From Thermodesulfovibrionales bacterium (lineage in GTDB: Bacteria; Nitrospirota; Thermodesulfovibrionia; Thermodesulfovibrionales; SM23-35): DNA of 64,000 bases. Shown piece after piece: positions 18,725 to 32,692 of the stretch. The stretch lies in assembly GCA_963715195.1 (NCBI GenBank), contig CAVQRT010000006.1:31543-95542 (forward strand). Direction: 5' to 3'. Made by a program: the position numbers and the translations under genes. Within the stretch, counting starts at the first letter, position 1. Each line of letters starts with the position of its first letter. The notes beneath the pieces are model-generated. The model saw nothing but the letters and a program-made list of their open reading frames with translations. It had not been told where the DNA came from and ran no database searches.

Positions 18725-19027
18725 ATGGATGTGAACACATTCTGTGGAGTGATGCAAACAGAAATCAATTCGTTAAAAGCGCGGGTCTATGACATTATGC
18801 GGTCAGTTGAAAAGACGAAGGGTAAGAAGAAAAGAGCAGATGCTGCTCAACTGACAGAATTGCACGCCCTTATCGAACACCTCTCCGAGATGAATGAGAA
18901 ACTTGCAAGGGCATGCCCGCTCGACTGGAGCAAAGAAAAGAAAGTAATAGAGGAGAAAAAGGCGGAATTGGCAGAAAAAATTGATATCTGGGATTCTGAA
19001 CACCTGGCAGGATTGGTAGATAATTAG
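18725..19027 (+). CDS. Small helical hypothetical protein
   Basis: Strong AAGGAGG RBS; amphipathic helices, CPLDWS motif. Confidence 0.8.
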   Translation: MDVNTFCGVMQTEINSLKARVYDIMRSVEKTKGKKKRADAAQLTELHALIEHLSEMNEKLARACPLDWSKEKKVIEEKKAELAEKIDIWDSEHLAGLVDN

Positions 19028-19677
19028 CCCGGACGATCAGTAATCTGTCCATCTTTTATGCAGAGCACTTCGTCGCCAAGCCGTTTGGCCTGCGCCAAAT
19101 CATGGGTTGTCATGACAATGGCCCTGCTGTCCTTGCGGATTTTACGGATGATATCTTCAATGATCTCTGTATTTTTTACATCGACAGAGGCTGTCGGCTC
19201 GTCGAGAAAGATTATCTCCGGTTCAACGACAAGTGCTCTCGCAATGCCAAGTCGCTGCGATTCGCCACTCGAAAGCGTCAGTGCATTCTGATTTTTTTTC
19301 TGCAGCAGACCGACAAAATCGAGAGCATGCTCTGCTCTTGATGCACTATCGATCTTCAGGTTTCTTATCTTCAGTCCATAGGCAACGTTTTTGTATACAC
19401 TTGTATTGAAAACGCCGATTTTGGGCAAGAGGAGAGTAATTCTTCTCATCAATGAAATGTCCTTTATGACAGGCTTGCCCTCAGAATAAAAATTGATATC
19501 ACCCGAATCAGGCGCTTCGAGAAGGGCACATATCCTGAGGAACGTCGATTTGCCGCTGCCATTCGGGCCCATAAGGACATAAATTCTACTGCTATTGAAA
19601 GTGAATGAGCAGTTTTTCAGCACGGTATCATTGCTGTAACTTTTCGAGATGTCTGAAACAACTAATTCAAGACTCAT
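19024..19677 (-). CDS. tupC: Tungstate ABC transporter ATPase
   Basis: GPNGSGKST, LSSGE, FLDEPT, TTH; follows the tupB-like permease. Confidence 0.82.
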   Translation of the reverse strand: MSLELVVSDISKSYSNDTVLKNCSFTFNSSRIYVLMGPNGSGKSTFLRICALLEAPDSGDINFYSEGKPVIKDISLMRRITLLLPKIGVFNTSVYKNVAYGLKIRNLKIDSASRAEHALDFVGLLQKKNQNALTLSSGESQRLGIARALVVEPEIIFLDEPTASVDVKNTEIIEDIIRKIRKDSRAIVMTTHDLAQAKRLGDEVLCIKDGQITDRPG

Positions 19678-20381
19678 CGTATTGTCCTGACCATTCCTTT
19701 TTTCTGAATGAGGTGCAACCCGATGTTGATCAGAAGGGAGATAATCAAGAGAATGATTCCGAGGGCAAGTGCAAGCTCGAAATTCCCTTTGTCGGTCTCA
19801 AGGGCAATTGTTGTGGTCATTACCCTGGTATATCCTGCAATATTACCTCCAACGATGAGAATGGCGCCGACCTCACCCATGGCCCTGCCAAGCCCTGCTA
19901 TAACTCCAGACAGTATACCGTACCTCGCTTCTTTGACGACAGCCAATGCAGCCTGGAAGGGAGTTGCACCGAGTGTTAGTGCAGCCCGTCTTATTATCGG
20001 ATCAACACTGATGACAGCAGAGTGACAGAGGGAAGTTACGATAGGAAATATAAGAATTGTCTGTGCCATCATCATTGCAGAAGGAGTATAGAGCAGTGCC
20101 ATAAATCCGATAGGCCCTCTTCGTGAAAGCAAAAGATACACAAAGAGTCCGACGACAACCGGAGGGAGGCCCATGAAAGTATTCGAAAGGCTTATGGCAA
20201 ATCCCCTTCCTCTGAATTTCTTTAGACCAAGGATTGAGCCTGCAGGGATACCGAGGGATGAAGCGATGAGAAGAGCAATTCCAGAAACCTCCAGGGACAG
20301 TACGATAATTCTCAGCAGTTCAGGGTCGAGATGGATGATCAGAGAAAATGCCTGAACGAAACCCTCTACCATGAAATCCAT
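19674..20381 (-). CDS. tupB: Tungstate ABC transporter permease
   Basis: MGLPPVVVGL..LSRRGP, GRAMGEVGA..GGNIAGYTRVMTT motifs of TupB. Confidence 0.88.
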   Translation of the reverse strand: MDFMVEGFVQAFSLIIHLDPELLRIIVLSLEVSGIALLIASSLGIPAGSILGLKKFRGRGFAISLSNTFMGLPPVVVGLFVYLLLSRRGPIGFMALLYTPSAMMMAQTILIFPIVTSLCHSAVISVDPIIRRAALTLGATPFQAALAVVKEARYGILSGVIAGLGRAMGEVGAILIVGGNIAGYTRVMTTTIALETDKGNFELALALGIILLIISLLINIGLHLIQKKGMVRTIR

Positions 20382-20399
20382 GAATGCGTTTAACCAGGT

Positions 20400-21218
20400 C
20401 TATTTTGCATTTGGTATAAAAAGCTGATTCCCGTTTTTATCTTTGAAAGATCCGATAGCCTGCTGGCCTTCGTTCGAGATGAGCCAGTTAATAAATTCCA
20501 TCGACTCTTTGTATTTAACATGTGTGTGCTTTTCAGGATTAACTGCCATTACTCCATACTGATTAAATAAGATGGGGTCGCCTTCAAGAACAATCATCAT
20601 CTCCAGTTTGTCCTTGTTTTTTGTTGCAAGCCAGGTACCCCTGTCCGTCAGCGTATATGCGCGTTTTTCATCCGCTATTCTCTGTGTCTTTTCCATACCC
20701 TGTCCTGCTTCGAGATACCACTTCTGGCCTTTGGGTTCTGTGCCGGCTTTTTTCCATATCGTCAGTTCTTTTGTGTGCGTTCCCGAATTGTCACCGCGTG
20801 AAACAAAGAGATTAGCGCTTTCACTCAGTTTCCGGAATGCGCCTTCTGCAGATTTCAGACCCCTGATCTTTGCAGGATCATTATCCGGGCCGATAATAAT
20901 AAAGTCATTGTACATGAGGTCATGCCTGTCGACAAAATATCCTTCCTCGACTGCCTTTAATTCCTGTTCCTTGGCATGAACCATAACCATATCTGCATCA
21001 CCCCGCTTGCCCATCTCTATTGCGGCGCCTGTCCCCCGCGCAACTACCTTAACTATAATACCTGTCTTCTTTTCAAATATCGGAAGGATATAGCTGAATA
21101 ACCCGGAATTTTCTGTGCTTGTCGTTGACGCGCAGATGATCTCATTCTCTGCTGCATTTACCCAGGTGTATGTTGTTGAAAGAATAAGTAGCATGAACGA
21201 TAAACTCATTTTTAACAT
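20400..21218 (-). CDS. tupA: Tungstate-binding periplasmic protein with signal peptide
   Basis: Signal peptide ending VNA; ASTTSTENSGL, GTG, VHA, YNDF, SRGDNSGT, LTDRGT. Confidence 0.88.
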   Translation of the reverse strand: MLKMSLSFMLLILSTTYTWVNAAENEIICASTTSTENSGLFSYILPIFEKKTGIIVKVVARGTGAAIEMGKRGDADMVMVHAKEQELKAVEEGYFVDRHDLMYNDFIIIGPDNDPAKIRGLKSAEGAFRKLSESANLFVSRGDNSGTHTKELTIWKKAGTEPKGQKWYLEAGQGMEKTQRIADEKRAYTLTDRGTWLATKNKDKLEMMIVLEGDPILFNQYGVMAVNPEKHTHVKYKESMEFINWLISNEGQQAIGSFKDKNGNQLFIPNAK

Positions 21219-21239
21219 TTTCGTTCTCCTTATGAAAAA

Positions 21240-22025
21240 TTACCTATTCTTCTTTTCCATCAATGATGGAACCGCGTCAGGATAGAATAGGTTAATCCCA
21301 TGTTTCTTATATGATGCAATGAGATGTTGTCCTTCAGACGATGTTACAAAAGCGATGAAATCCATAGCCTCTCTATATTTGATTTTTGGGAATTTATCGG
21401 GATTGAGAGCAATTACACTGTAATTGTTCCTTAAAATGGGGTCACCTCTGAAAAGAGTCTTCAGATCAAGTCTGGATTCATATCTCAGAAATGTACCAAG
21501 ATCGGTCAGTGTATATGCTCTCTTCTGTGTGGCCATCAATAATGTATCTGACATATTCGCCCCTGCCTCAAAGTACCAGCCTTTTCCCTTCGGATTAATT
21601 CCGGCGTCGTCCCAGATATCCAGTTCCTTGATGTTTGTTCCCGAGTCGTCTCCCCTTGAAACAAAGGATGCTCCCTTCTCAGCAATTTCCTCAAAAACCT
21701 CGATGGCAGTTTTTGATTTCCTGATCCCGGCAGGATCTTTTGGAGGGCCGACAACAACAAAATCATTATGCATGACAGCCCTTCTGTTAACTCCATAGCC
21801 TTCGGCTACAAACTTTTTTTCGCGGAAAGGATCATGAACGAAGAGCATATCTGCATCCCCCTTCTTGGCGATTCGAATTGCTTTGCCCGTGCCGACTGCA
21901 ATGATTTCGATTTTTATATTGTATTTTGTAGATTTCTCATAGGCAGGGATTAAAATATCGAAAAGTCCCGAATTCTGCGTGCTTGTCGTTGATGCGATCA
22001 CAAGGGTTGTTTTTTCTATTGCCAT
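21240..22025 (-). CDS. TupA paralogue lacking a signal peptide
   Basis: ASTTSTQNSGL at residue 11, HNDF, SRGDDSGT; GGGAGG RBS; no hydrophobic leader. Confidence 0.82.
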   Translation of the reverse strand: MAIEKTTLVIASTTSTQNSGLFDILIPAYEKSTKYNIKIEIIAVGTGKAIRIAKKGDADMLFVHDPFREKKFVAEGYGVNRRAVMHNDFVVVGPPKDPAGIRKSKTAIEVFEEIAEKGASFVSRGDDSGTNIKELDIWDDAGINPKGKGWYFEAGANMSDTLLMATQKRAYTLTDLGTFLRYESRLDLKTLFRGDPILRNNYSVIALNPDKFPKIKYREAMDFIAFVTSSEGQHLIASYKKHGINLFYPDAVPSLMEKKNR

Positions 22026-22075
22026 CCTATCCTCCCGATATTAGTTCTGATGTCAAAATAATTCACTCAGCTCGA

Positions 22076-22819
22076 TTAGTTGAGCCGATAGATAATTGGT
22101 ATGATGATCTGGGCTTCGACAGGAGGTTTTGGAAATGGTGAAGCATTGTTTATCGCTTTTATAGCACTCTCGTCGAGAATCTCATGCCCAGAGCTTTTGG
22201 ATATCTTTACCTCTTTTGCGCACCCTGCTGAGGAAATAATAAACGAGGTGATTACCTTTCCCTCCCACCCCATCTTTTTCGCCTGGGCAGGATAGACAAG
22301 ATGTTTATGAATGAGGTCTTTTATATAGGAAAAATGAGCCTTGATATATCGCGACCTCGCCGGTGATACAGAGTCAACTCCGGCACCCCCAGAGTGACCC
22401 AACGAAGACGCTTTCTGAAATCCCGCATCAGAGCCACTGCCTTGAGAGGTATACTCAGAGAACTGGGTAAGATTAACCTTTGCCTCAAAGAAGTTTTGTT
22501 GGGCTATCACAGCAGCTGGCTGTGTCTCCACCTGCTCCATTGCCGATGATTCCAGGGTCATACGTGGCTGCTGAGTTGCTTTGGGAGTGATCTCCGGAGG
22601 TGTTGCAGGCTGTGCTACCCGTTTTTTCGGCAGCCTAAAGAGAGATCGGGTGGAAGGTGCTGAGCCCCCGTCTCTAAGAACTGGTTCATTTCCCATGGTA
22701 AAGTCCACAATAAGGACATTTTGCTGTTTCACCACCGGCGCGTGCAGAGTAATGAGAGCGAGTAAAATTATGCTATGAATAAGGAGAGAAAGCTGCAAGG
22801 ATTTCCACTGGCTCGTCAT
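22076..22819 (-). CDS. tonB: Energy transducer TonB
   Basis: N-terminal TM SLLIHS, Pro-rich linker, YPAQAKKMGWEGKV, SSGHEILD..A, PFPKPP. Confidence 0.9.
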   Translation of the reverse strand: MTSQWKSLQLSLLIHSIILLALITLHAPVVKQQNVLIVDFTMGNEPVLRDGGSAPSTRSLFRLPKKRVAQPATPPEITPKATQQPRMTLESSAMEQVETQPAAVIAQQNFFEAKVNLTQFSEYTSQGSGSDAGFQKASSLGHSGGAGVDSVSPARSRYIKAHFSYIKDLIHKHLVYPAQAKKMGWEGKVITSFIISSAGCAKEVKISKSSGHEILDESAIKAINNASPFPKPPVEAQIIIPIIYRLN

Positions 22820-22872
22820 GTTCTTATCTTCACATGTATCTGTATCAAATCGAATCTGATATGCTGAGGATA

Positions 22873-23487
22873 TCAGTAATAGTAGACCGTGTATTCTTTT
22901 AAGGTGTTATCATCAGTATAAACGGATTTTTTTATTTTTTCCCCCTTTTCGTCGTAATCATTCTTCGTGATTTGTAATATTTTCCCATGCATATCATACT
23001 TGGTCTTTGTTGTTGCTTTTCCCTGCGCGTCATATGAATACAACTCGTATGATTTTAATTGATTATCAGGAGTATATTCAGTTCTTTTCGTCTTCCTCCC
23101 GTTAGCGTCATACTCGAAGGTAAAATAACGTTTGAGCGTGCGATCCGCAGAATAGTCAGTCTTTTTCGTTCTTTTCCCTTTGGCGTTGTATTCATATGCT
23201 GTTATCGAGACCAGCTTGTCAGCGGCATCGTACTCTTGCTTTTCAAGACGTTTTCCGTCGTTATCATTGGTGTAACGGAAATAACGCAATAGTTGACCAG
23301 TTGGAGAGAAATGCTGTCTTTTTGCTTTATCGTATTGATTGTATTCATAGGTGTAGTAGGACTGCATCTCATGAGCAGCATTGTAAATCTCTTTCTTGAC
23401 TTTTTCACCTTTGGTTTTCTCCGTGGACAATGTTGTGCATCCTGACACTAACATGCAGATACAAAGAAATGAAAATAACGCTTTCAT
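22873..23487 (-). CDS. Lipoprotein built of 24-aa YD/RHS-like repeats
   Basis: Lipobox LVSG-C; about six or seven repeats of Y-x-Y-D/N-x-x-G-K...Y; GAGGAGG RBS. Confidence 0.8.
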   Translation of the reverse strand: MKALFSFLCICMLVSGCTTLSTEKTKGEKVKKEIYNAAHEMQSYYTYEYNQYDKAKRQHFSPTGQLLRYFRYTNDNDGKRLEKQEYDAADKLVSITAYEYNAKGKRTKKTDYSADRTLKRYFTFEYDANGRKTKRTEYTPDNQLKSYELYSYDAQGKATTKTKYDMHGKILQITKNDYDEKGEKIKKSVYTDDNTLKEYTVYYY

Positions 23488-23536
23488 ATCGCCTCCTCCT
23501 CAAAGTACGACTTAGATGAGTTTTTTATCCTTATCC

Positions 23537-25519
23537 CTAAAGACTGACTGTTATTCCCCCATAGATAAAGCGACCTGCCTGAGGGAATCCATAACTTTGC
23601 TCGTAGTCTTCATCAAAAATGTTATCAGCTCCCAGATAAACATCAAGTTTACCATTCAGGAAGGCTTGATCGAGCTTCAGATTGACCAATGTATAATCAT
23701 CCAAATTTCTCTTTCGTACAGGCGTAGTCCTCGAATAATAAACCTGGTCGGCTATATGCATCACATTCATGTACGCAGATAAACCGAAAGCAAAGGAATA
23801 TTTGCTTTCGAAGCTAAATGTATGTTCAGGCCTGTACTGTAGTTCGTCCCTTTCAGTGTCCGGCGACTCATCCTTCGTATATATGTAGGTATAGCCTGTC
23901 CTTAGCAAAAGATCTTGCACGTATCGATTCTCTGCAGTCAATTCAATACCCTTAAACTTATATTCACTGAAGTTCACAAATTTATCACTTACCGTTTCGA
24001 CATATTCAATATAATCCTGCATATCAATCAGGAAACCGATGAGAGTGGCCTTTGTGTTCCAGGGGAGTTTCTGTTCTATTCCGACTTCGTAATTGTTGGA
24101 TTTCTCCGTTTTCAGATCAGGATTTCCCCGACTTATATCATAGAGTTGGCGAATGTCAGGAAACCGTATCTTTCGTGCAAAAGAGCCCCTTATCCGAGTA
24201 TTTTCATAGATATCGTAATACACTCCTATGAGGTAACTCCCTTCATTGTCGTCCCCTTCGTCCTTTTCCAGCCAGTTGTAACCGTAACCAAAAACGAGGC
24301 CAAGATTCTTTACGGGTACAACTTCATATTCGAGGGCGGCTGAGTATACGGCGATATCTTTTTCATCGTGTGTATCTACCCGCCCGGTTTTCGTTATGTC
24401 GTACCCATCGGTCTCCCATTCTTCTCCCCGGCCCCTGAGACCGAGTGTTAAAACGCCTGCTGTCTTCAGATTATACGTTGTCTGGAGGGCAGCCCCCATG
24501 ACTTGTGTTTCGTTATCATGGTGAAATGCACCATTCCCGGTTATTGAGCTGTAATTGCCGTCATCATATCGGTTCTCTTCCTCTGCTAATTGGTTGAAAA
24601 AGATCCACGATCTCAGTCCGAAAGGTCCGGGCAGATCATAGCTCAGTGAAAGGTGCCCGGAATAACCCTCAAAATTATCCATTCGCTCGTATCGTTGTTT
24701 ATCTGAAAAATCATCCTGCGGGGAAATGGTGGTCGAAGGTTTGCCAAATTCTCCATTCAGGTAATTAAAAACAGCTCCGATGATAACTTTCTCACTCGGG
24801 GAAAAATTGACATTTGAGAAGAAATTATTGTTTCTTCTGTCACTATTTTCGCGAATGTCACCGTCTTCTTCAGGTGTTTCCTTAAAATCATCCGATAGGC
24901 GAAAGCCATTGCTGTCAAGCATGCTTCCGCCGATGAAGAAGTCAACCTTTTCGTGGGCCCCGGATACATTAAAGGTACCAAGATAATGATCTGCCTCTCC
25001 TGCCTCTCCTGAGACCATGCCACGAACGCCTGCCGTTCCTTTTTTCGTAATGATGTTGATAACTCCCCCAAGACCACCATCTCCGTAAAGCACCGAATGG
25101 GTCCCATATGAAACTTTTATCTTCTCGATGCTCTCCGCAGGAATCAGAGAAGGGTCAAAATTACCATCGTACGTGGAATTGATGGGAATACCATCGAGCA
25201 GAAGAATGACGTGTCTCGAACGAAAACCTCTGAGATCAACCCGGGGAACTCCGTCGGCCCCTGTTCTCATGTATAGACCTGGCAACAACTTCATTGCTTC
25301 ATCTAGAGTCCGTGCACCTTTGTTTCGAATGTCTTCAGAGGTGATCTCCCTGACCGTTCCCACCGATTCAACTCCTTCCCGCTCGCCACTCACTATGATT
25401 TCGCCAAGAGTATAAGCATGCTTATCAGGCAACATCTCGGCATGAGCATTCAGATAGAATGCATGACATGTTAGCAGAACAAATAAACTGATACAACGAA
25501 TACATTTACACGCAATCAT
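23537..25519 (-). CDS. TonB-dependent outer-membrane receptor
   Basis: Signal peptide, TonB-box-like EIIVSG, plug motifs LRGF..LLDGIP and YGDGGLGGVINIITKK, GNPDLKTE, DNIFD..GRFIYGG; AAGGAGG RBS before ATG 25519. Confidence 0.92.
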   Translation of the reverse strand: MIACKCIRCISLFVLLTCHAFYLNAHAEMLPDKHAYTLGEIIVSGEREGVESVGTVREITSEDIRNKGARTLDEAMKLLPGLYMRTGADGVPRVDLRGFRSRHVILLLDGIPINSTYDGNFDPSLIPAESIEKIKVSYGTHSVLYGDGGLGGVINIITKKGTAGVRGMVSGEAGEADHYLGTFNVSGAHEKVDFFIGGSMLDSNGFRLSDDFKETPEEDGDIRENSDRRNNNFFSNVNFSPSEKVIIGAVFNYLNGEFGKPSTTISPQDDFSDKQRYERMDNFEGYSGHLSLSYDLPGPFGLRSWIFFNQLAEEENRYDDGNYSSITGNGAFHHDNETQVMGAALQTTYNLKTAGVLTLGLRGRGEEWETDGYDITKTGRVDTHDEKDIAVYSAALEYEVVPVKNLGLVFGYGYNWLEKDEGDDNEGSYLIGVYYDIYENTRIRGSFARKIRFPDIRQLYDISRGNPDLKTEKSNNYEVGIEQKLPWNTKATLIGFLIDMQDYIEYVETVSDKFVNFSEYKFKGIELTAENRYVQDLLLRTGYTYIYTKDESPDTERDELQYRPEHTFSFESKYSFAFGLSAYMNVMHIADQVYYSRTTPVRKRNLDDYTLVNLKLDQAFLNGKLDVYLGADNIFDEDYEQSYGFPQAGRFIYGGITVSL

Positions 25520-25617
25520 GATTCCCTCCTTAAAAAACAAGAATAGTCATCTTTCATTCTTGGAGATGGCTCGCTATGATTATCCTAAAAAAAACGAGGA
25601 AAAGACGAATGCTTTGT

Positions 25618-25697
25618 TTTCATGGTAAGCATGAAATTATTGCATGACCCCTCTGGATGATTCGAGCGTTGACACCATCTTTGTGACCCCTTACAAT
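25618..25697 (+). promoter_or_regulatory. LTTR-type operator and sigma70 promoter of lysR
   Basis: TTTCATG-N5-CATGAAA (25618-25636), ATG-N9-CAT T-N11-A box (25631-25645), TTGACA-N17-TACAAT (25669-25697). Confidence 0.65.
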
Positions 25698-25704
25698 AAT
25701 GCCG

Positions 25705-26610
25705 ATGGAAGACCACAGATTAAAAGCATTCTGTCTTGTTGTAGAGATGGAAAGCTTCTCCAAAGCAGCTAAAGCGAAATTCATGACCCAATCAGCGATG
25801 AGCCATCTCATTAAAAATCTGGAAGACGAACTGGGAGTGAAACTCCTCATCAGAAAAGGAAAAAAAGTCGTTCTGACGTCTGCCGGAAAGATATTTTACG
25901 GGCATGCATGCAAAATACTCGGGCAGTATGAAACGTTAGATCATGATATCAATATGCTGCTTCATCGTGTAAGAGGGCCTTTGCACATCGGGGCAACCAC
26001 AACAGCAGCAGGTTATCTTCTGCCTCAGGTTCTCTACAGCTTTTCAAAAAATTATCCGGATGTGCAGATTACTGTGTCGGTATCGAATACAGAAATGATC
26101 CTGCATGAACTTCAGAATGCAAGAATTGAAATGGGCATAGTTGAGGGAAAGGTGAAGAATTCGTCGATATGCATGGCAGAGATCGCTGAAGATGAAATTG
26201 TTATTATTGCATCTGACGATAACCCCTTAACCGGCAAAAAACAGATTCAACAACAAGAGCTTTTGTCCCAACCCTTTATAATGCCGGAACCCGGTTCGGG
26301 CATCAGGGAGTGCATCGAGGAATTTTTCTCAAGTGCTGAGATTGATCCGAATGCACTCCTGACATCAATGACACTCGGAAGCACGGAGTTGATCGTGCAG
26401 ATGGTTAAATCGGGGCAAGGCATCTCTTTTGTATCAAAGTGGTCTGTTTTCAACGCACTTAAGGAAGGAACAATATCAATTTTGAACGTTCGCGGCAAGC
26501 GACTATTTAGAAAATTTTATCTCGTGACGATTGGCAAGGAACCGGAAACCATGATTTCGAAAACGTTTATTGAATTTCTGAAAGAATATCGCTTCTTTAA
26601 GCCCTTTTAG
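25705..26610 (+). CDS. LysR-family regulator, CysL-like effector domain
   Basis: SFSKAA..TQSAMS..IKNLEDELG HTH; IGATTT..YLLP, EPGSGIR, LGSTE. Confidence 0.92.
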   Translation: MEDHRLKAFCLVVEMESFSKAAKAKFMTQSAMSHLIKNLEDELGVKLLIRKGKKVVLTSAGKIFYGHACKILGQYETLDHDINMLLHRVRGPLHIGATTTAAGYLLPQVLYSFSKNYPDVQITVSVSNTEMILHELQNARIEMGIVEGKVKNSSICMAEIAEDEIVIIASDDNPLTGKKQIQQQELLSQPFIMPEPGSGIRECIEEFFSSAEIDPNALLTSMTLGSTELIVQMVKSGQGISFVSKWSVFNALKEGTISILNVRGKRLFRKFYLVTIGKEPETMISKTFIEFLKEYRFFKPF

Positions 26611-26814: not shown

Positions 26815-27372
26815 CTATTTTCTGAATCTCACAAACAGATAGAATCCTATAAGAAAGGGTTCGAACCGGATAACCATGTTGTCGGTAAACCCCCAGAAAA
26901 ATTCATAGATAAAGATGCGCAATTGACTGACTGTCTCAAGTTTCATCTTCATGAGAACAGTTGTCAGTTCCTTGAGTTCAAAAGTCACAATGAAGAGCAA
27001 GTGGACAATGAGCAGTAATATGACTGCTTCACCGTAAGCTCTCAACCTTTTTCGGATGAACAAGAAGAGGGAAGACATAATAGCCAGCGTCAGGGGACTA
27101 TTGAATGTATAGGTATTTGTCCTGACCGGAATATCTATAAGGACATCACGGTTGATTCTGTAAGGGGTAAATGTTACCTGGACACGCTCGTCGTTCTGAT
27201 CAACCGCATCAATTTCCAGGTCTTTCAGCCCGGCAATGATTTTGGATGCAGTCATCGTCATTCCGTACCCGTAATAATCCTTTACCTGTATCCAGAGAAT
27301 GAGAAAAATACAATAGGACAAAATGAAGATGATAACGGTCTTCAGAATGAGATTAAGCGGCAGCTTTGGCAT
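26815..27372 (-). CDS. Exosortase H-associated membrane protein
   Basis: Multi-TM protein overlapping the exosortase stop; no Cys at the position equivalent to the catalytic one. Confidence 0.65.
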   Translation of the reverse strand: MPKLPLNLILKTVIIFILSYCIFLILWIQVKDYYGYGMTMTASKIIAGLKDLEIDAVDQNDERVQVTFTPYRINRDVLIDIPVRTNTYTFNSPLTLAIMSSLFLFIRKRLRAYGEAVILLLIVHLLFIVTFELKELTTVLMKMKLETVSQLRIFIYEFFWGFTDNMVIRFEPFLIGFYLFVRFRK

Positions 27373-27907
27373 CGGTTTTTGTAAAAGCCAAATAGAGGAA
27401 GAATGTTCCGAGAGCGATTGCTATCATGATACCCTGTGCAACATAGATATGAATGTAATGAAAGATGCTCTCAAAGTGAACTCCGGCATAGGCCAATCCT
27501 ACGATTCTTGCAATGTTGATTACCTGAATGATCAGAAACCCTGTCACGATGCCATAGACCTTTCTTTTCCACGTCGCAGGAAATGCAAGGACGGCGACTG
27601 AATATATCATGACGGCTTCGAGGCCATTGCATCCGAAACGTACGTCGAGGGAAATGGACGGGAGATGTATGATTGAGCCAGTGCATGAAGCTGTGATGTG
27701 AAGTGCGCTAAGAATCTTTGCGGTTATCAGGACCACCCCTCTGGTATACAAGCCGTTCACATCAATAATTCTCTGTAACGGCGTAAAACCGATAATGAAA
27801 AAGAAGCCAGCCATCAGTATGAGATACGTGATGATGAAGCGCCTCACGCTTACCTTCTGGATATCGTCAGGTTTGGATTGCCTGCTTTTAGTACTCTTTT
27901 TCTTCAT
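27353..27907 (-). CDS. xrtH: Exosortase H (IPTL-CTERM-specific)
   Basis: GCNGLE (Cys), INIARI (Arg), FHYIH (His); adjacent to an IPTL-CTERM tail. Confidence 0.82.
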   Translation of the reverse strand: MKKKSTKSRQSKPDDIQKVSVRRFIITYLILMAGFFFIIGFTPLQRIIDVNGLYTRGVVLITAKILSALHITASCTGSIIHLPSISLDVRFGCNGLEAVMIYSVAVLAFPATWKRKVYGIVTGFLIIQVINIARIVGLAYAGVHFESIFHYIHIYVAQGIMIAIALGTFFLYLAFTKTDAKAAA

Positions 27908-27923
27908 ATGCTGATTAGATAAT

Positions 27924-28022
27924 TAGTGTCTGTTTATTAAACCATTGTTCGTCGTCCTCCGGCTTGACCGGGGGATCCATGAGTTCAAGAATAAATTGGA
28001 TTCCCGCCAAGCGGGAATGACA
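27924..28022. repeat. REP-doublet element
   Basis: TAGTGTCTGTTTATTAA left end, then TCCTCCGG-CTTGA-CCGGGGGA and ATTCCCGC-CAA-GCGGGAAT-GAC hairpins. Confidence 0.65.
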
Positions 28023-28046
28023 AGTATTGAAACCACGTTCATTATG

Positions 28047-28080
28047 AAATAAAAGGGGCAGAGAAATATCTTCCTGCCCC
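28047..28080 (-). terminator. Rho-independent terminator of the IPTL-CTERM gene
   Basis: GGGGCAG...CTGCCCC stem followed on the minus strand by TTTTATTT. Confidence 0.7.
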
Positions 28081-28103
28081 CAAAACAAATTCTGAATGAT
28101 TAA

Positions 28104-31100
28104 TTAATTCCTGACACGTCTCCTTAGAAAATAGAGAGCAGCCAAGCCCTGCAGTAATAAGAGTATTATCATTCCCCATTCATTCATCGTTGGTACTGCA
28201 GCAGCACCACGAGATCTCCTCCATACGGTCGGGTCTCCAGGAAGGAGAGGTACCGGGATCATCCGTGCATGACGTATCTCCGCCCGGAATCTGAGCACAA
28301 CCCTGGTTTTCTACCCTCGTCACCGAGGTGCTCATCGTAGTTCTGAATGTGATGACTACTTCATTATTTGCCTGGGTTTCATTTAGCGCTCCAGGGTCTG
28401 CGGCGACTGTTCCTTCCCATATAATTCTGTTGTTCCCGCTATCAAAGGTACAGGATGACGTTGATGAAGCGCCCCTTGGGTCACATACTAAGCTTCCACG
28501 ACATAGCTCGTATTGTCGGGGATGTCATCGGTAATCATCACACCGACTGCATTAGCATTGCCGTTATTGATCCATACCATCCTCCACACCAGTTCAGGAT
28601 ACCCATCGGCGTTGACGGTCTTTGACTCCTAGGTGGATCAAAGAGACGAGGGTTCGCCAGCTGTAACAGTCTCGGTGTCGGTCGGAGAGGTTACCACGCC
28701 GTTGGTAGCAGAGGCAATGTTTGTTACCGAACCGGCATCCAGATCAGCCTGCGTGATGGTGTAGCTCGATGTGCAGGTGATTGATGCACCGGGGGCAAGA
28801 TTCGGAGTCACAGGACAGCTTTCGTTAGTTGTCTTGTTGTCATTTACCGTAAAGGGCCCACTCAGGGTGATATTACCACTGTTGGTGACAAGATAGCTGT
28901 AACTAATCAAGGTACCCACTGTGCTGTAGGTGGTCGGTGAAGCAGACTTAACGATCGTAAGAGCCGGTGATTGAACTGCAGTAACGGTCTCGGTGTCGGT
29001 CGGAGAGGTCACTGCGCCATTGGTTGCAGAAGCAATGTTGGTTACCGAACCGGTATTCAGATCAGCTTGGGTGATAGTATAGCTCGATGTGCAGGTGATG
29101 GATGCACCGGGGGCAAGAGATGCGTTGGAGGACAGCTTTCGTTGGTTGTCTTGTTGTCACTTACCGAGAACGGACCGCTCAGGGTGACATTGCCACTATT
29201 AGTCACGATATAGCTGTAATTGATCACCGTTCCTACTGCGCTGTAGGTCGTCGGCGAGGCTGACTTGGCAATGCTAAGTGCAGGGTTCGGCTTGATAACT
29301 GTCACACTGTCCGTGTTTGATGTCACACCATCTGCAGATGCAGAAGCAGTATTTGTTACAAAACCATCTGTCACATCCTGTGCCTGCACAGTATAAGTAG
29401 CCGAACAAGAAATGCTCTCGCCAGGGTCCAGATAATTGTCCAAATCGCCTACTGTGTTTACGTCCGGGCAGGTTTCATCAGCAGATTTATCGTCTGATAC
29501 TGTAAGAGGCCCGAGCAGCGGATACCCGCCATTGTTTTCAACAACATAATTGTAGGTCAATAATTCACCAACAGCATTAAATTCGGTCGGATCGGCGCTT
29601 TTATCTAATGATAGGGATTTTGTTCCATACCTTGCCGATGAAGTAGACCGGGTTTGTGGATGCGCTGTCTGGCAGTTCCGTCGAAGTATTCATAAATGGG
29701 TTCGGTGTTGGAATCGAAGTTACTGACACAGGCCCGACAATACAAGCTGGCTGATGCATCTATTGCAAGTGAAGAGGGCAGGAGAACAGCACGGGGTTGA
29801 CGTCCGGATCAGTAGACGCTTATACTGCTTAGCGCTGTTTCACCGTCGTTTGAGACCGTAAATCTGTAATATATATCTCCGAGGCAGGCTTACACCAACA
29901 AATTTAAACCAGTTTGTGCCGTCAGTAGAAATTTGTTTATTTAACCCAAGGAGTGGTTGAGGATTGCTGACAACGAGAGTTGCAGTTGCTGCACTGCCGT
30001 CTCCGCCTTCCGAGGATGTAACAGCACTGAGGTTGTATTCTCCTATGAACCGACAGCTGAACCGGTTACTGTGACATTAAAGGTACACGAGGTATTTGCT
30101 GCAAGCGACCCACCTGAAAAAGAGATTGTACTTGGTGCTGTTGTTGTTAGTGACCCACCACAGGTCGCTGTTGGTCCACTATTTGCGACAGTCAGACCTG
30201 CCGGCAACGTATCTGTGAAACCGATACCACTCAGTGATATTGTTTGATTGGGATTGGTAATCGAAAACGTCAACGTTGAAGTCTGGCCGACAAGAATCGA
30301 TGCCGGGGAGAAAGATTTTGCGAGGTCAGGAGGTGCGATCACCGTCAAAGAATCAGTGGCATATCCGTTCGAGCTGTTATTGTTACCGCTCTCATTAGAG
30401 GAAATAAACCCACTGACGTTCTCGTATATACCTTCGATCGCTCCTGTCACCGTTATTTGGGTAAGCAACTGGCTCCGGCAGCGAGAGATCCGTCTGTTAG
30501 TGAAATTGTTCTTGTCGCGGCGGTTGTAGTCAGTGTACCTCCACACACAGGTGAAACAGTGGAGTCCGAAATTGACAGACCTGCGGCAAGAACATCGGTG
30601 AAAGCAATGCCGGTCAAAGCCTTGTTCCCGGGTTGAGTGTTACTGATGGTAAAAGAGAGCGTTGAATCTGAACCCTTTATAATCGGATTAGGAGAGAAGG
30701 ATTTAATAATAGTCGGCGGTGGAGCAGGTATCGCACATCCCGTAAATGTAATTACGTCTAATTCAAGCCTGCACCGCTATTGTCATTCTTAGCGCCCGTA
30801 GCGGCAATCCGGAAAGTCGTTGTGCCTGTTGTGCTTGTCAATCCGGTAAAATCGATGCTCTCGGTGTCCAATCAGTGACAGCCGGCGGAGTTAGCGTTCC
30901 CGCAGGCAGCGTTACAAACCCCGATCCGTTGTCATACGAAACCGTCATAGTCGTGGGGCCGTTGGCAGGATCTGGCATTCTTCAGTTGAAAATCCATCCG
31001 AACATCGGTGTATGCTCGGGTGTCAACGGCAAATTGCACATAATTGCCTGTTTTGTAACCATAAGGTCAGCCAGGAAGCAGTGTCATTTGATCCAATATT

Positions 31101-32692
31101 ATCGATTGATGTATCTCGCGGGAAATTGTGCTGAAGCGGAGGCAGTGAAACCGGTATTATTTGTTGTAGGACTTCCTGCCCCTCCGGTTCCTGTATCCGG
31201 CGGCGTTTGTAGCTCCGACGGGTACAGTCCAAATCACTAGTGTTTGACCCGGCGCACAGGCCGGAGCTGAGGAAGCTGTGAGCGTATCGCTCCCGGTATT
31301 GCCTGTATCCACTGATGTATTAATAAAAAGATTCCCGGTTGTATTGGGATAGGTTCCCTCGGGTGCCGTTACAGTCAGCGAGATTGTGCAAATGCTATTC
31401 GGAGCCAGCGTACCATTCGAAAAAGAAACCGATGTCTCTCCTCCGGTTGGTGCAGGTGAAAATGTTCCTGCACCGCAGCTGTTATAGGAAACTCCTGGCG
31501 TGCTATCAACCGCTAAACCGGCAGGGAAGGCGTCAATAAAATTGACACCGGCAATCGTTTCAGAAGTCGGGTTGTTAAGCTTAAAGGTCATGGTTGAAGT
31601 CCCACCCGGGGAAATTGCTTTCGGGCTGAATGATTTGCCGATTGTCACCGACGATGGCCCCAGGATATTTATAATGCGAGCGCCAACCCCGTAGTCAGCG
31701 TTGTAGTGGAAACTGCTTCCCGAGAAGTCATAGAGCAGGCTATTGAGGGTTTGGCTGGTGCCTGCACCGCTGAGTATTTTGACTATGTAAGTGGTGACAA
31801 CATTGCTGCCGCCCGCTTTGCCGGTAAGAGGATCGACGCCGACACACGAGCGATAGTTCGGGCTGTCGGGATCGTTCTCCCAAAGGCATGCATCGGCATA
31901 CAACTTGTCATTGGGATTTGAAACATAGCCGGAGCTGTCCGCAGAGTAGGTTGTGCTCACAGAAAGAATCTGAAATATCGTATTGGGAAAATTGATAAAG
32001 GCTTCAAACTGTTCATATCCCTGGGTTGCAGTGCCACCGTAAAGTTTGATGGTATACGTATTGCCGACGATCAGTGTCATGGAACCGCCGGCCGGGACAT
32101 GACACTCCATTGAGCTGTATGTCGGATACTGAGTTGCGGTTCTGAGATATCAGGTGTTCTACGTACAACTCACGCGGCTGGGGAGAGGATCCCGTTGCGC
32201 CGGACACCGAGTCGGTGGCAGTGATATGGTAGCGACGGGTGTTGTCAAAAGCAGCTGCAACTTTTGTAACTTCAACCTCAAAATACGCATCGGAACAGCT
32301 ACTGGCCGCAAGAGAGCCGATGGTAATTGATGATAGTGAGCCAGCACGCAGATTAATGTAATCGTCAGCGTTGACATCACCAACAAACACGCCTTGTCCA
32401 TCATCCCAAAGAAAAGCGGCAGTTACATTGTTGGCATCCGTAGTTCCTGTGTTACAAACCCGTGCACCGACCGGGAAACGATAAGGACCAGTTGCCGGGC
32501 TGTTGCTGTCAAGTCCTATGATATTCCAGGTGATTGGCCTGATTTCAAGGACCGGATCAGCAATAGCCGAAGATGTTAAGGTAGATAGAAAGACCAGGAC
32601 CAGAAGACGGATTGTGATGAAATCTCTTACAGCAGAAAGCCTTGTTGCATCTCTGAAGAATCTTTCTGCGATATTTCACTGTCTAAACTCAT
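28104..32692 (-). pseudogene. Large Ig-like-repeat (DUF11/DUF7507-like) surface protein with IPTL-CTERM signal, multiply frameshifted
   Basis: AAGGAGG RBS + ATG 32692; signal peptide; ITWNIIGLDSN domain; KSFSP and KSASP..YxVTNSGN repeats; tail VPTMNEWG-TM-RRR; homology continues across about ten or more frame changes. Confidence 0.8.
28663..29290. repeat. Two tandem coding repeats of about 318 bp (Ig-like domain duplication)
   Basis: GTAAC(A/G)GTCTCGGTGTCGGTCGGAGAGG starts at 28663 and 28981, with continued high similarity. Confidence 0.85.

Follow-up and report, generated by a model that had tools for sequence, protein, structure and literature searches.

A candidate tungsten (molybdenum) scavenging operon with a TonB-dependent receptor, TupABC and a LysR regulator in a Thermodesulfovibrionales bacterium

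A stretch of 64,000 nucleotides from a Thermodesulfovibrionales bacterium (hereafter the window; contig CAVQRT010000006.1, positions 31,543 to 95,542, of GenBank assembly GCA_963715195.1, 2.8 Mb and 97.8% complete) was analyzed for a cluster of seven minus-strand genes that face a divergent lysR. These encode a TonB-dependent receptor, an exported YD-repeat protein, TonB, a signal-less TupA paralogue (hereafter TupA'), and the tungstate transporter components TupA, TupB and TupC. The system is real, conserved and linked to tungsten and molybdenum (W/Mo): it represents tungstate uptake with a putative outer-membrane step and a candidate new design of regulator. On balance, sequence and genomic context speak for a W (Mo) scavenging operon in which the receptor would import W/Mo species, likely bound, and TupABC would likely take the released tungstate inward.

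An earlier note, made from the letters of the window, had described seven co-oriented, tightly spaced genes divergent from a LysR gene, with no internal terminator that could be seen and no exbBD in the window. This description stood. All eight open reading frames (ORFs) were open at the positions given in Table 1, the domain identities of the operon genes were confirmed by Pfam and NCBIfam, and the seven genes were spaced by 49, 53, 50, 21, 18 and -4 bp. None of the 21 terminator-like matches found between 16 and 30 kb fell in these gaps, and no ExbB/MotA match was found in the window. An identical gene order was observed in another Nitrospirota genome (locus L001 of genome G517; loci and genomes are denoted hereafter by L and G numbers, contigs by C numbers) and in metagenome loci, indicating that the order is more than chance, and the position of tonB was conserved in L001, L012, L013, L017 and L022. 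The cluster would very probably be expressed as one transcript from the operator-linked promoter.

The neighbourhoods of receptor homologues were surveyed by a metagenome scan with a 51-sequence receptor alignment, from which the best 80 of 489 matches were taken. L001 and 77 of these 80 gave 78 loci in which the receptor ORF reached a length of 330 aa and an identity of 40%; dereplication at 90% left 56, and 26 of these, having at least 6 kb of flank, formed the informative set. Pfam, NCBIfam and PDB were used to verify what the neighbours had been called. tupA or tupB was present in 13 of the 26 informative loci, and any of tupA/B, a TaoR-type regulator (HTH_17 plus PBP_like, as defined in PMC11980592), MoSto, ModE-N or WtpA in 18, a count that rises to 20 with the riboswitch of L073 and the operator of L032; WtpA scored above cut-off among the clade neighbours. 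Such markers were spread over at least six subclades of a quick IQ-TREE tree, used solely for subclade counts. The link of the receptor to W/Mo, for which the earlier note had proposed a survey of tupABC co-occurrence as a check, holds across the clade. Four types of control were found on the clade: the LysR with its operator, the TaoR-type regulator, ModE-N, and Mo/W riboswitches (Rfam), which occur in tandem upstream of clusters L076 and L065 and also in L073. Close relatives of the receptor (at least 58% identity) accompany this LysR. More distant ones, which carry database names from Desulfobacterales, Deltaproteobacteria, Poribacteria and others, frequently lie opposite a TaoR-type gene that has tupABC behind it on the opposite strand. 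A scan of named genomes with a single protein gave one locus, so the deeper clade is placed taxonomically by these database names. In 251 genomes of the order, three full receptor orthologues, one fragment and seven sister-clade matches were found. All 10 full-length clade or sister matches lay in LysR/tup loci; the fragment is followed by ECF-type genes. Neither receptor nor TupA had a match in three genomes of the same genus.

Other W/Mo-related genes were noted in these surroundings. MoSto homologues (PDB E 3e-64) stand beside the receptor in L066 (5220), L040, L051 and L076, from apparent anaerobes. Genes for a GEGP-motif diheme protein and a Porin_O_P protein adjoin TaoR-type and wtpA genes in L054 (10208-13685), L053, L056 and L065, in the last case behind the tandem Mo/W riboswitches. 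A sister receptor clade (28-31% identical) lies under the same operator in L001 (2068-9581), L012, L013, L087, L115, L118 and L120, followed by CcsA-like, ResB-like and Oxidored_molyb proteins (the last with or without a TP-methylase domain), an APC permease and sometimes exbBD.

The receptor carries the signal peptide, TonB box, plug and beta-barrel of TonB-dependent transporters, and scored below every substrate-specific NCBIfam cut-off, including those of TonB-B12 (TIGR01779; 149 versus 600) and PRK10641 (131 versus 836 bits). An AlphaFold2 model (pLDDT 86.6) showed a standard plug and barrel. This fold is shared with BtuB, PfeA (which binds protochelin), OprC and PqqU at TM-scores of 0.73-0.78, but the receptor is only 15-19% identical to them and their substrates are not transferable to it.

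The operator provides a second line of evidence. A seed of two ATG-N9-CAT boxes 7 bp apart was matched at 17 or more of 20 positions by 16 of 17 lysR intergenic regions; in the seventeenth (L027) the site was found after ORF overlap was ignored. In orthologues the operator is mostly followed by TTGAC(T). As a single-box matrix was unspecific (118 matches), a tandem matrix was used, trained on 12 other loci with the window excluded. The operator of the window stood far apart, with 18.6 bits for the runner-up among distinct sites of the 2.8-Mb genome; no internal copy was found before tupA' in the window, where the best other score was 1.7. The operator stays before the receptor where an inserted module displaces lysR by 8-9 kb (L001, L012, L013), and in relatives it is also found ahead of tonB, tupA', tupA-type genes, porins, wtpA and the gene for the sister receptor. 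G004 has a second copy, which stands before a cluster of fmdE and a molybdopterin oxidoreductase gene (L085). No TaoR-type locus had an operator score above 20. The T-N11-A dyad boxes lie between the divergent genes and beside the -35 element, as in divergent operons of LysR-type transcriptional regulators (LTTRs). An LTTR site abutting the -35 is an established activation pattern, with which this arrangement agrees. Most LysR orthologues have 301 aa and start at the Met corresponding to ATG 25705, and the lysR mRNA is likely leaderless, starting at that codon.

Among the closest PDB neighbours of the regulator are YeiE and CysL (C. sakazakii YeiE, 7ERP). YeiE binds sulfite via Arg191 and a ring of Ser, Thr and Asn residues, with Glu145 conferring selectivity (PMC8931317). 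Equivalents of Ser/Thr96, Asn126, Glu145 and Ser195 are largely kept (the last three in 105, 117 and 118 of 119 homologues, respectively). By contrast, Arg191 is replaced by Pro in 118 of the 119 and by Ala in one, the Thr197 equivalent is variable (Thr in 33), a C-terminal YRFFxPF tail is conserved in the group, and the targets are tup and TonB genes rather than cysJI. A LysR paralogue on contig C7 keeps the Arg and has no tail. The loss of the anion-binding Arg, and the fact that the signal-less TupA' travels with this LysR, speak against the oxyanion-sensing, CysL-like regulator of the earlier note; control of the operon by LysR was upheld by neighbourhoods and operator, and there is good reason to expect that LysR would control it in response to W/Mo supply. 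The protein just misses the cut-off of NF040786, 'selenium metabolism-associated LysR' (246.7 versus 250), a label that some orthologues carry. A selenium-specific reading was rejected on account of this score and of the genes that follow the operator copies: tup, tonB, wtpA, porin, receptor and molybdopterin-enzyme genes were seen there, but no selenium gene. ModE, TaoR (DVU3193) and the Mo/W (Moco) riboswitch RF01055 likewise control W/Mo uptake genes, and such elements take the same position before other members of the receptor clade or the tup operon. In contrast to ModE and TaoR, with their fused Mop/TOBE or PBP domain, the regulator here is a canonical LTTR that likely works with a separate soluble binding protein.

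TupA' is the candidate for that protein. Paralogy to TupA, seen in the earlier note, was confirmed, and the tungstate site is intact, but a signal peptide is missing: none of 120 TupA' homologues has a hydrophobic leader, and 115 have 12-13 residues before the motif, hence a predicted cytoplasmic location. Residues T13-T14-S15, H64, R124, T130 and D175 are invariant, and TupA' keeps every tungstate-binding residue named for D. alaskensis TupA (TTTS, His59, Arg118, Thr124 and Asp170; PMC5517513). In the 251 genomes, TupA' was found in 47 and the LysR in 42; 39 had both, within 15 kb of each other in 37. Twenty tup/receptor loci were also fetched, from 19 of 31 tupA genomes, with two-TupA genomes favoured, and from G105: 11 contained LysR, operator and TupA', one contained operator and TupA' at a contig edge, and eight contained none of the three, with ModE-N instead in four of these. 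Of eight genomes with TupA' only, six were inspected: in one the LysR is cut by the contig end, in three ModE-N lies directly upstream, one is ambiguous, and the remaining one has a diverged LysR (42%) with both the Pro and the tail. Since TupA' has no signal peptide, keeps its tungstate site and co-occurs with the LysR, it is a candidate for the cytoplasmic sensor. The ModE-N proteins that replace LysR have no metal-binding domain, so a separate sensor fits both situations; a role as buffer or chaperone fits too, and ModE-N also occurs without TupA'. That tungstate is sensed by cytoplasmic TupA' acting on a LysR with an altered anion pocket is held at slightly less than even odds.

Table 1. 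Features of the candidate operon and its regulator in the window
Feature	Position	Strand	Description
TonB-dependent receptor	23537..25519	-	660 aa from ATG behind AGGAGG site; signal peptide, TonB-box-like TLGEIIVS, Plug and barrel (Pfam)
Exported YD-repeat protein	22873..23487	-	204 aa; RHS/YD repeat matches
TonB	22076..22819	-	247 aa; PF03544 E 1.5e-20
TupA', signal-less TupA paralogue	21240..22025	-	Own ribosome site; in-frame stop 5 codons upstream; tungstate site intact
TupA, periplasmic tungstate-binding protein with signal peptide	20400..21218	-	PDB 3LR1 E 6e-73, 5MY5 E 4e-61; site residues kept
TupB permease	19674..20381	-	NF038017 above cut-off; best named family NF041773 TupB, 170 vs 320
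TupC ATPase	19024..19677	-	217 aa; ABC_tran; Walker A, signature, Walker B and H-loop present; without TOBE domain
Tandem LysR-type operator	25609..25645	-	Two 15-bp boxes ATG-N9-CAT, spacing 7 bp; 35.2 bits
Sigma70-like promoter of lysR	25669..25697	+	TTGACA-17-TACAAT; 11/12 matches, best of 28 promoter-like matches in region
LysR regulator	25699..26610	+	YeiE/CysL/CcmR neighbourhood; anion-binding Arg replaced by Pro; conserved C-terminal YRFFxPF tail

At the distal end of the operon, a 100-aa plus-strand ORF (window 18725-19027; no Pfam or NCBIfam match) is convergent with tupC; as the two overlap by 4 bp at the tupC stop, an intergenic terminator has no room there. Beyond lysR, minus-strand genes (window 26815-32110) encode exosortase H and its associated membrane protein, after a large gene for a surface protein with DUF11/DUF7507/DUF7933 repeats, which is split into several ORFs in different frames by decay or assembly error.

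The inner-membrane part of the system corresponds to TupABC of E. acidaminophilum, C. jejuni, D. alaskensis G20 (5MY5) and G. sulfurreducens (3LR1), with which it shares a periplasmic TupA with a TTTS-type motif and His/Arg/Thr/Asp site, a ModB-like permease and an ABC ATPase. In TupA of the window the motif reads STTS, the equivalents of His59, Arg118, Thr124 and Asp170 are kept, and a signal peptide is present. TupA (NF041772), TupB and TupC missed the NCBIfam equivalog cut-offs (251/400, 170/320 and 126/400, respectively); these models look lineage-narrow, since none of the TupA matches from 41 related genomes reached the cut-off. Unlike the known systems, the cluster additionally contains an outer-membrane receptor, TonB, a YD protein, a signal-less second TupA and a LysR with its own operator, none of which is mentioned in the accessible text of the TupABC descriptions cited here. 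A further, exported TupA-like paralogue with GSPGE replacing TTTS was noted in L006 (17462-18337), L013, L014, L090 and L096, in many cases with an operator copy of its own in front; its ligand may be another anion.

The genome holds one tup set and three TonB receptors; ModA, WtpA and TOBE were not found in it. Five molybdopterin-oxidoreductase matches (PF00384) were present, two with an in-frame TGA, along with selA. As no AOR was found in the genome, the need for tungsten is inferred from enzymes of formate dehydrogenase type and from TupA, and not from WOR. A formate-dehydrogenase-like gene appears as three ORFs (contig C3, 44948-47640), with one break being an in-frame TGA, likely selenocysteine. 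Outside the window and about 26 kb from the operon, a molybdopterin oxidoreductase lies with a TauE/TSUP permease (C6, 22098-25170) that is 84% identical to the TauE genes adjoining tupC in L012 and L022.

With regard to energy supply, the sole MotA/ExbB-family match in the assembly is TolQ, in the tol-pal cluster on C3. Contig C15 begins within a second tonB gene, so exbBD may have escaped assembly; in L001 and L118, exbBD lies inside the cluster. The motor would be an ExbBD missing from the assembly, or TolQR by cross-talk.

Genes behind the receptor fall into alternative modules. Directly after it, 13 of 21 close loci have the YD gene and seven an ABC ATPase, never both, and in every ATPase locus with sufficient flank the ATPase is part of an ECF module that includes a TiaS-like gene. 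In L006 (12004-15323) and many other loci, this module comprises a double ATPase, EcfT, a protein with a TiaS-like N-terminal domain and a small S-component. Receptors 84-87% identical switch between the two modules (L006/L007 versus L011/L013). Their exclusivity suggests a single cargo that can be handled in either manner. The YD protein is basic (pI ~9), contains 14% Tyr and matched no named ESM Atlas family at 0.9 or above. It had been called a YD-repeat lipoprotein: the repeats are confirmed, and a lipobox (LVSG-C) is present here, but the lipobox is missing in several orthologues. The protein may possibly bind anionic cargo, and the further idea that it helps to hand cargo on is put forward tentatively. 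Porin_O_P-type or unnamed porin-like genes occur under the same operator in other loci, with anion-type porins alone or beside the receptor in L006, L028, L088, L090 and L092. An unnamed porin-like protein with an N-terminal coiled coil and no Pfam or NCBIfam match (L001, 15429-17333) is encoded between tupA and tupB in relatives, and a 56% homologue of the L012/L022 porin-like form is found elsewhere in this genome (C30, 35375-37123).

Combined, these data suggest the following mechanism. W/Mo shortage would act through LysR on a single transcript, and the receptor, energized by TonB, would draw a species carrying W/Mo through the outer membrane. TupA would capture the tungstate released in the periplasm for import by TupBC, and TupA' would report the tungstate level in the cytoplasm. 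What the data show directly is gene content, conserved residues, the operator motif and the co-occurrences. The receptor's cargo probably contains W or Mo. Because anion porins for the free ion sit in the same operons, a bound form (chelate, thio- or polytungstate, pterin complex) is more likely than the free ion, and the cargo likely feeds TupABC, although the ABC ATPase behind the receptor in a third of the close loci (7/21) counts otherwise. The complete design, combining TonB-energized import of bound tungsten with a two-protein sensor in which TupA' switches a LysR without anion contact at a 37-bp operator, in a group of Nitrospirota, is doubtful as a whole.

Several observations limit or weigh against the scavenging operon or parts of it. 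In an RNA run and an unlabelled run (shares 0.20 and 0.26), contigs were short and none of the pieces shown bridged an operon junction; the RNA library may hold DNA, and these runs count neither for nor against expression of the operon. Structure prediction of the plug site, a check proposed in the earlier note, gave no readable ligand site, as the receptor model and fold search revealed a generic fold. Six of the 26 informative loci (L033, L039, L058, L067, L071, L084) had no W/Mo marker. ECF genes occur in 10 of the 26 and TiaS-like genes in 13, which suggests an organic cofactor whose route would bypass TupABC. A control that favours the W/Mo link covered 92 TonB-barrel matches in the 41 related genomes: the receptor itself and two sister-clade members are within 10 kb of a tupA, and the other 89 are not. 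Fragmented assemblies weaken it, since no more than 15 of the 92 lie on one contig with a tupA; apart from the three, these 15 are at least 31 kb from it. TupA' stands behind ModE-N without this LysR in three genomes (L108, L110, L111) and is therefore not an exclusive LysR partner. A receptor of this kind is present in only nine of the 47 TupA' genomes, and G016 (L089) carries a broken cassette. Since most genomes with LysR and TupA' have no receptor and the G016 cassette is broken, the receptor is accessory and dispensable. Finally, related genomes are kin, and counts drawn from them are not independent.

The nature of the cargo admits alternatives. The receptor might import an intact pterin cofactor (Moco/Wco) or a precursor, co-regulated with tupABC since both would serve W/Mo enzymes, with the cargo either passing to an ECF transporter and a TiaS-like kinase or remaining in the periplasm, and not reaching TupABC. 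The frequency of ECF and TiaS-like genes, the swapping of ECF and YD modules behind closely similar receptors, the Moco-type riboswitches on the clade, and the Oxidored_molyb (pterin-binding fold) and methylase-fold proteins that accompany sister-clade receptors are all in its favour, and ECF transporters typically carry vitamins and cofactors. Yet this genome has no detectable ECF S or T or TiaS-like homologue while its receptor is intact, free Moco is labile, and ECF systems carry metal ions too, the sole match of the S component being a weak cobalt-type one. Because the modules swap behind closely similar receptors, bound W/Mo is preferred and the pterin cofactor is retained as an unlikely but serious contender. 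It is less likely still that the receptor binds free tungstate or molybdate at an Arg-lined plug site and so raises the periplasmic level for TupA, as OprC handles copper ions. Many Arg residues are invariant or nearly so in the 51 homologues, among them R279, R563/H566 and, within the loop RTGADG at the plug apex, R85, and TupABC is the only inner-membrane importer in the operon; conserved Arg residues are, however, common to all TonB plugs, and the picomolar affinity of TupA-type proteins for tungstate (PMC5517513) together with anion porins under the same operator lessens the need for a costly receptor. An importer of B12, iron or an unrelated substrate, neighbouring tupABC by chance, was rejected as very improbable. 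Many homologues are labelled 'vitamin B12 transporter', BtuB is the top PDB and fold match, and FecCD/BtuF-like genes occur in two of the 26 loci. Identity to BtuB is nevertheless 17%, the TonB-B12 score is far below its cut-off, and the W/Mo context recurs under four regulator types; no cobalamin riboswitch was found (Rfam) in the window or in 25 clade loci scanned, whereas a separate btuB-like receptor gene elsewhere in the genome stands behind one. Together with neighbourhoods, operator and Mo/W riboswitches, this substantiates the link of the receptor to W/Mo claimed in the earlier note.

As to sensing, LysR itself might bind tungstate, molybdate or an S/Se oxyanion; TupA' would then buffer tungstate in the cytoplasm, act as a chaperone or modulate TupC. 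This is a possible, lesser alternative to a TupA' sensor. The pocket residues S/T100, N130, E149 and S200 are largely kept, the pocket could be larger without the Arg, TupA' is still present in loci with ModE-N in place of LysR, and the nearest NCBIfam family is the selenium-associated one. On the other hand, all 119 homologues lack the ionic contact and there is free variation at positions 101 and 202, the ModE-N proteins standing in for LysR have no metal-binding domain either, so that a separate sensor suits both cases, and the operator copies lead W/Mo-related genes and no selenium gene.

Passage of W/Mo across the outer membrane is commonly left to porins. A full-text literature search turned up no publication that describes a TonB receptor alongside tupABC, a LysR regulator for tungstate or a cytoplasmic TupA, nor an experimentally shown TonB-dependent W/Mo importer, with mentions at regulon level possible in the TaoR and TunR papers and supplements. 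In the text available, PMC545781, PMC2700814, PMC2408646, PMC11980592, PMC10102598 and PMC11672702 treat ModE, TaoR/tupR and the Moco riboswitch without a link to a TonB receptor, and Rodionov 2004 and Aklujkar 2009 link no TonB receptor to ModE or tup. The same idea appears, as annotation only in the part of the source available, in a TonB receptor placed in a Mo-acquisition cluster beside the mod genes of an aerobe.

A receptor clade found under four W/Mo control elements offers a concrete protein for testing, and its ligand would reveal in what chemical form W/Mo is available to anaerobes when only traces are present. LysR and TupA', small and soluble and acting on a defined operator, are a candidate pair for a new way of sensing metals that can be tested directly, and the labels 'vitamin B12 transporter' and 'selenium-associated/cysJI LysR' would be corrected for this group.

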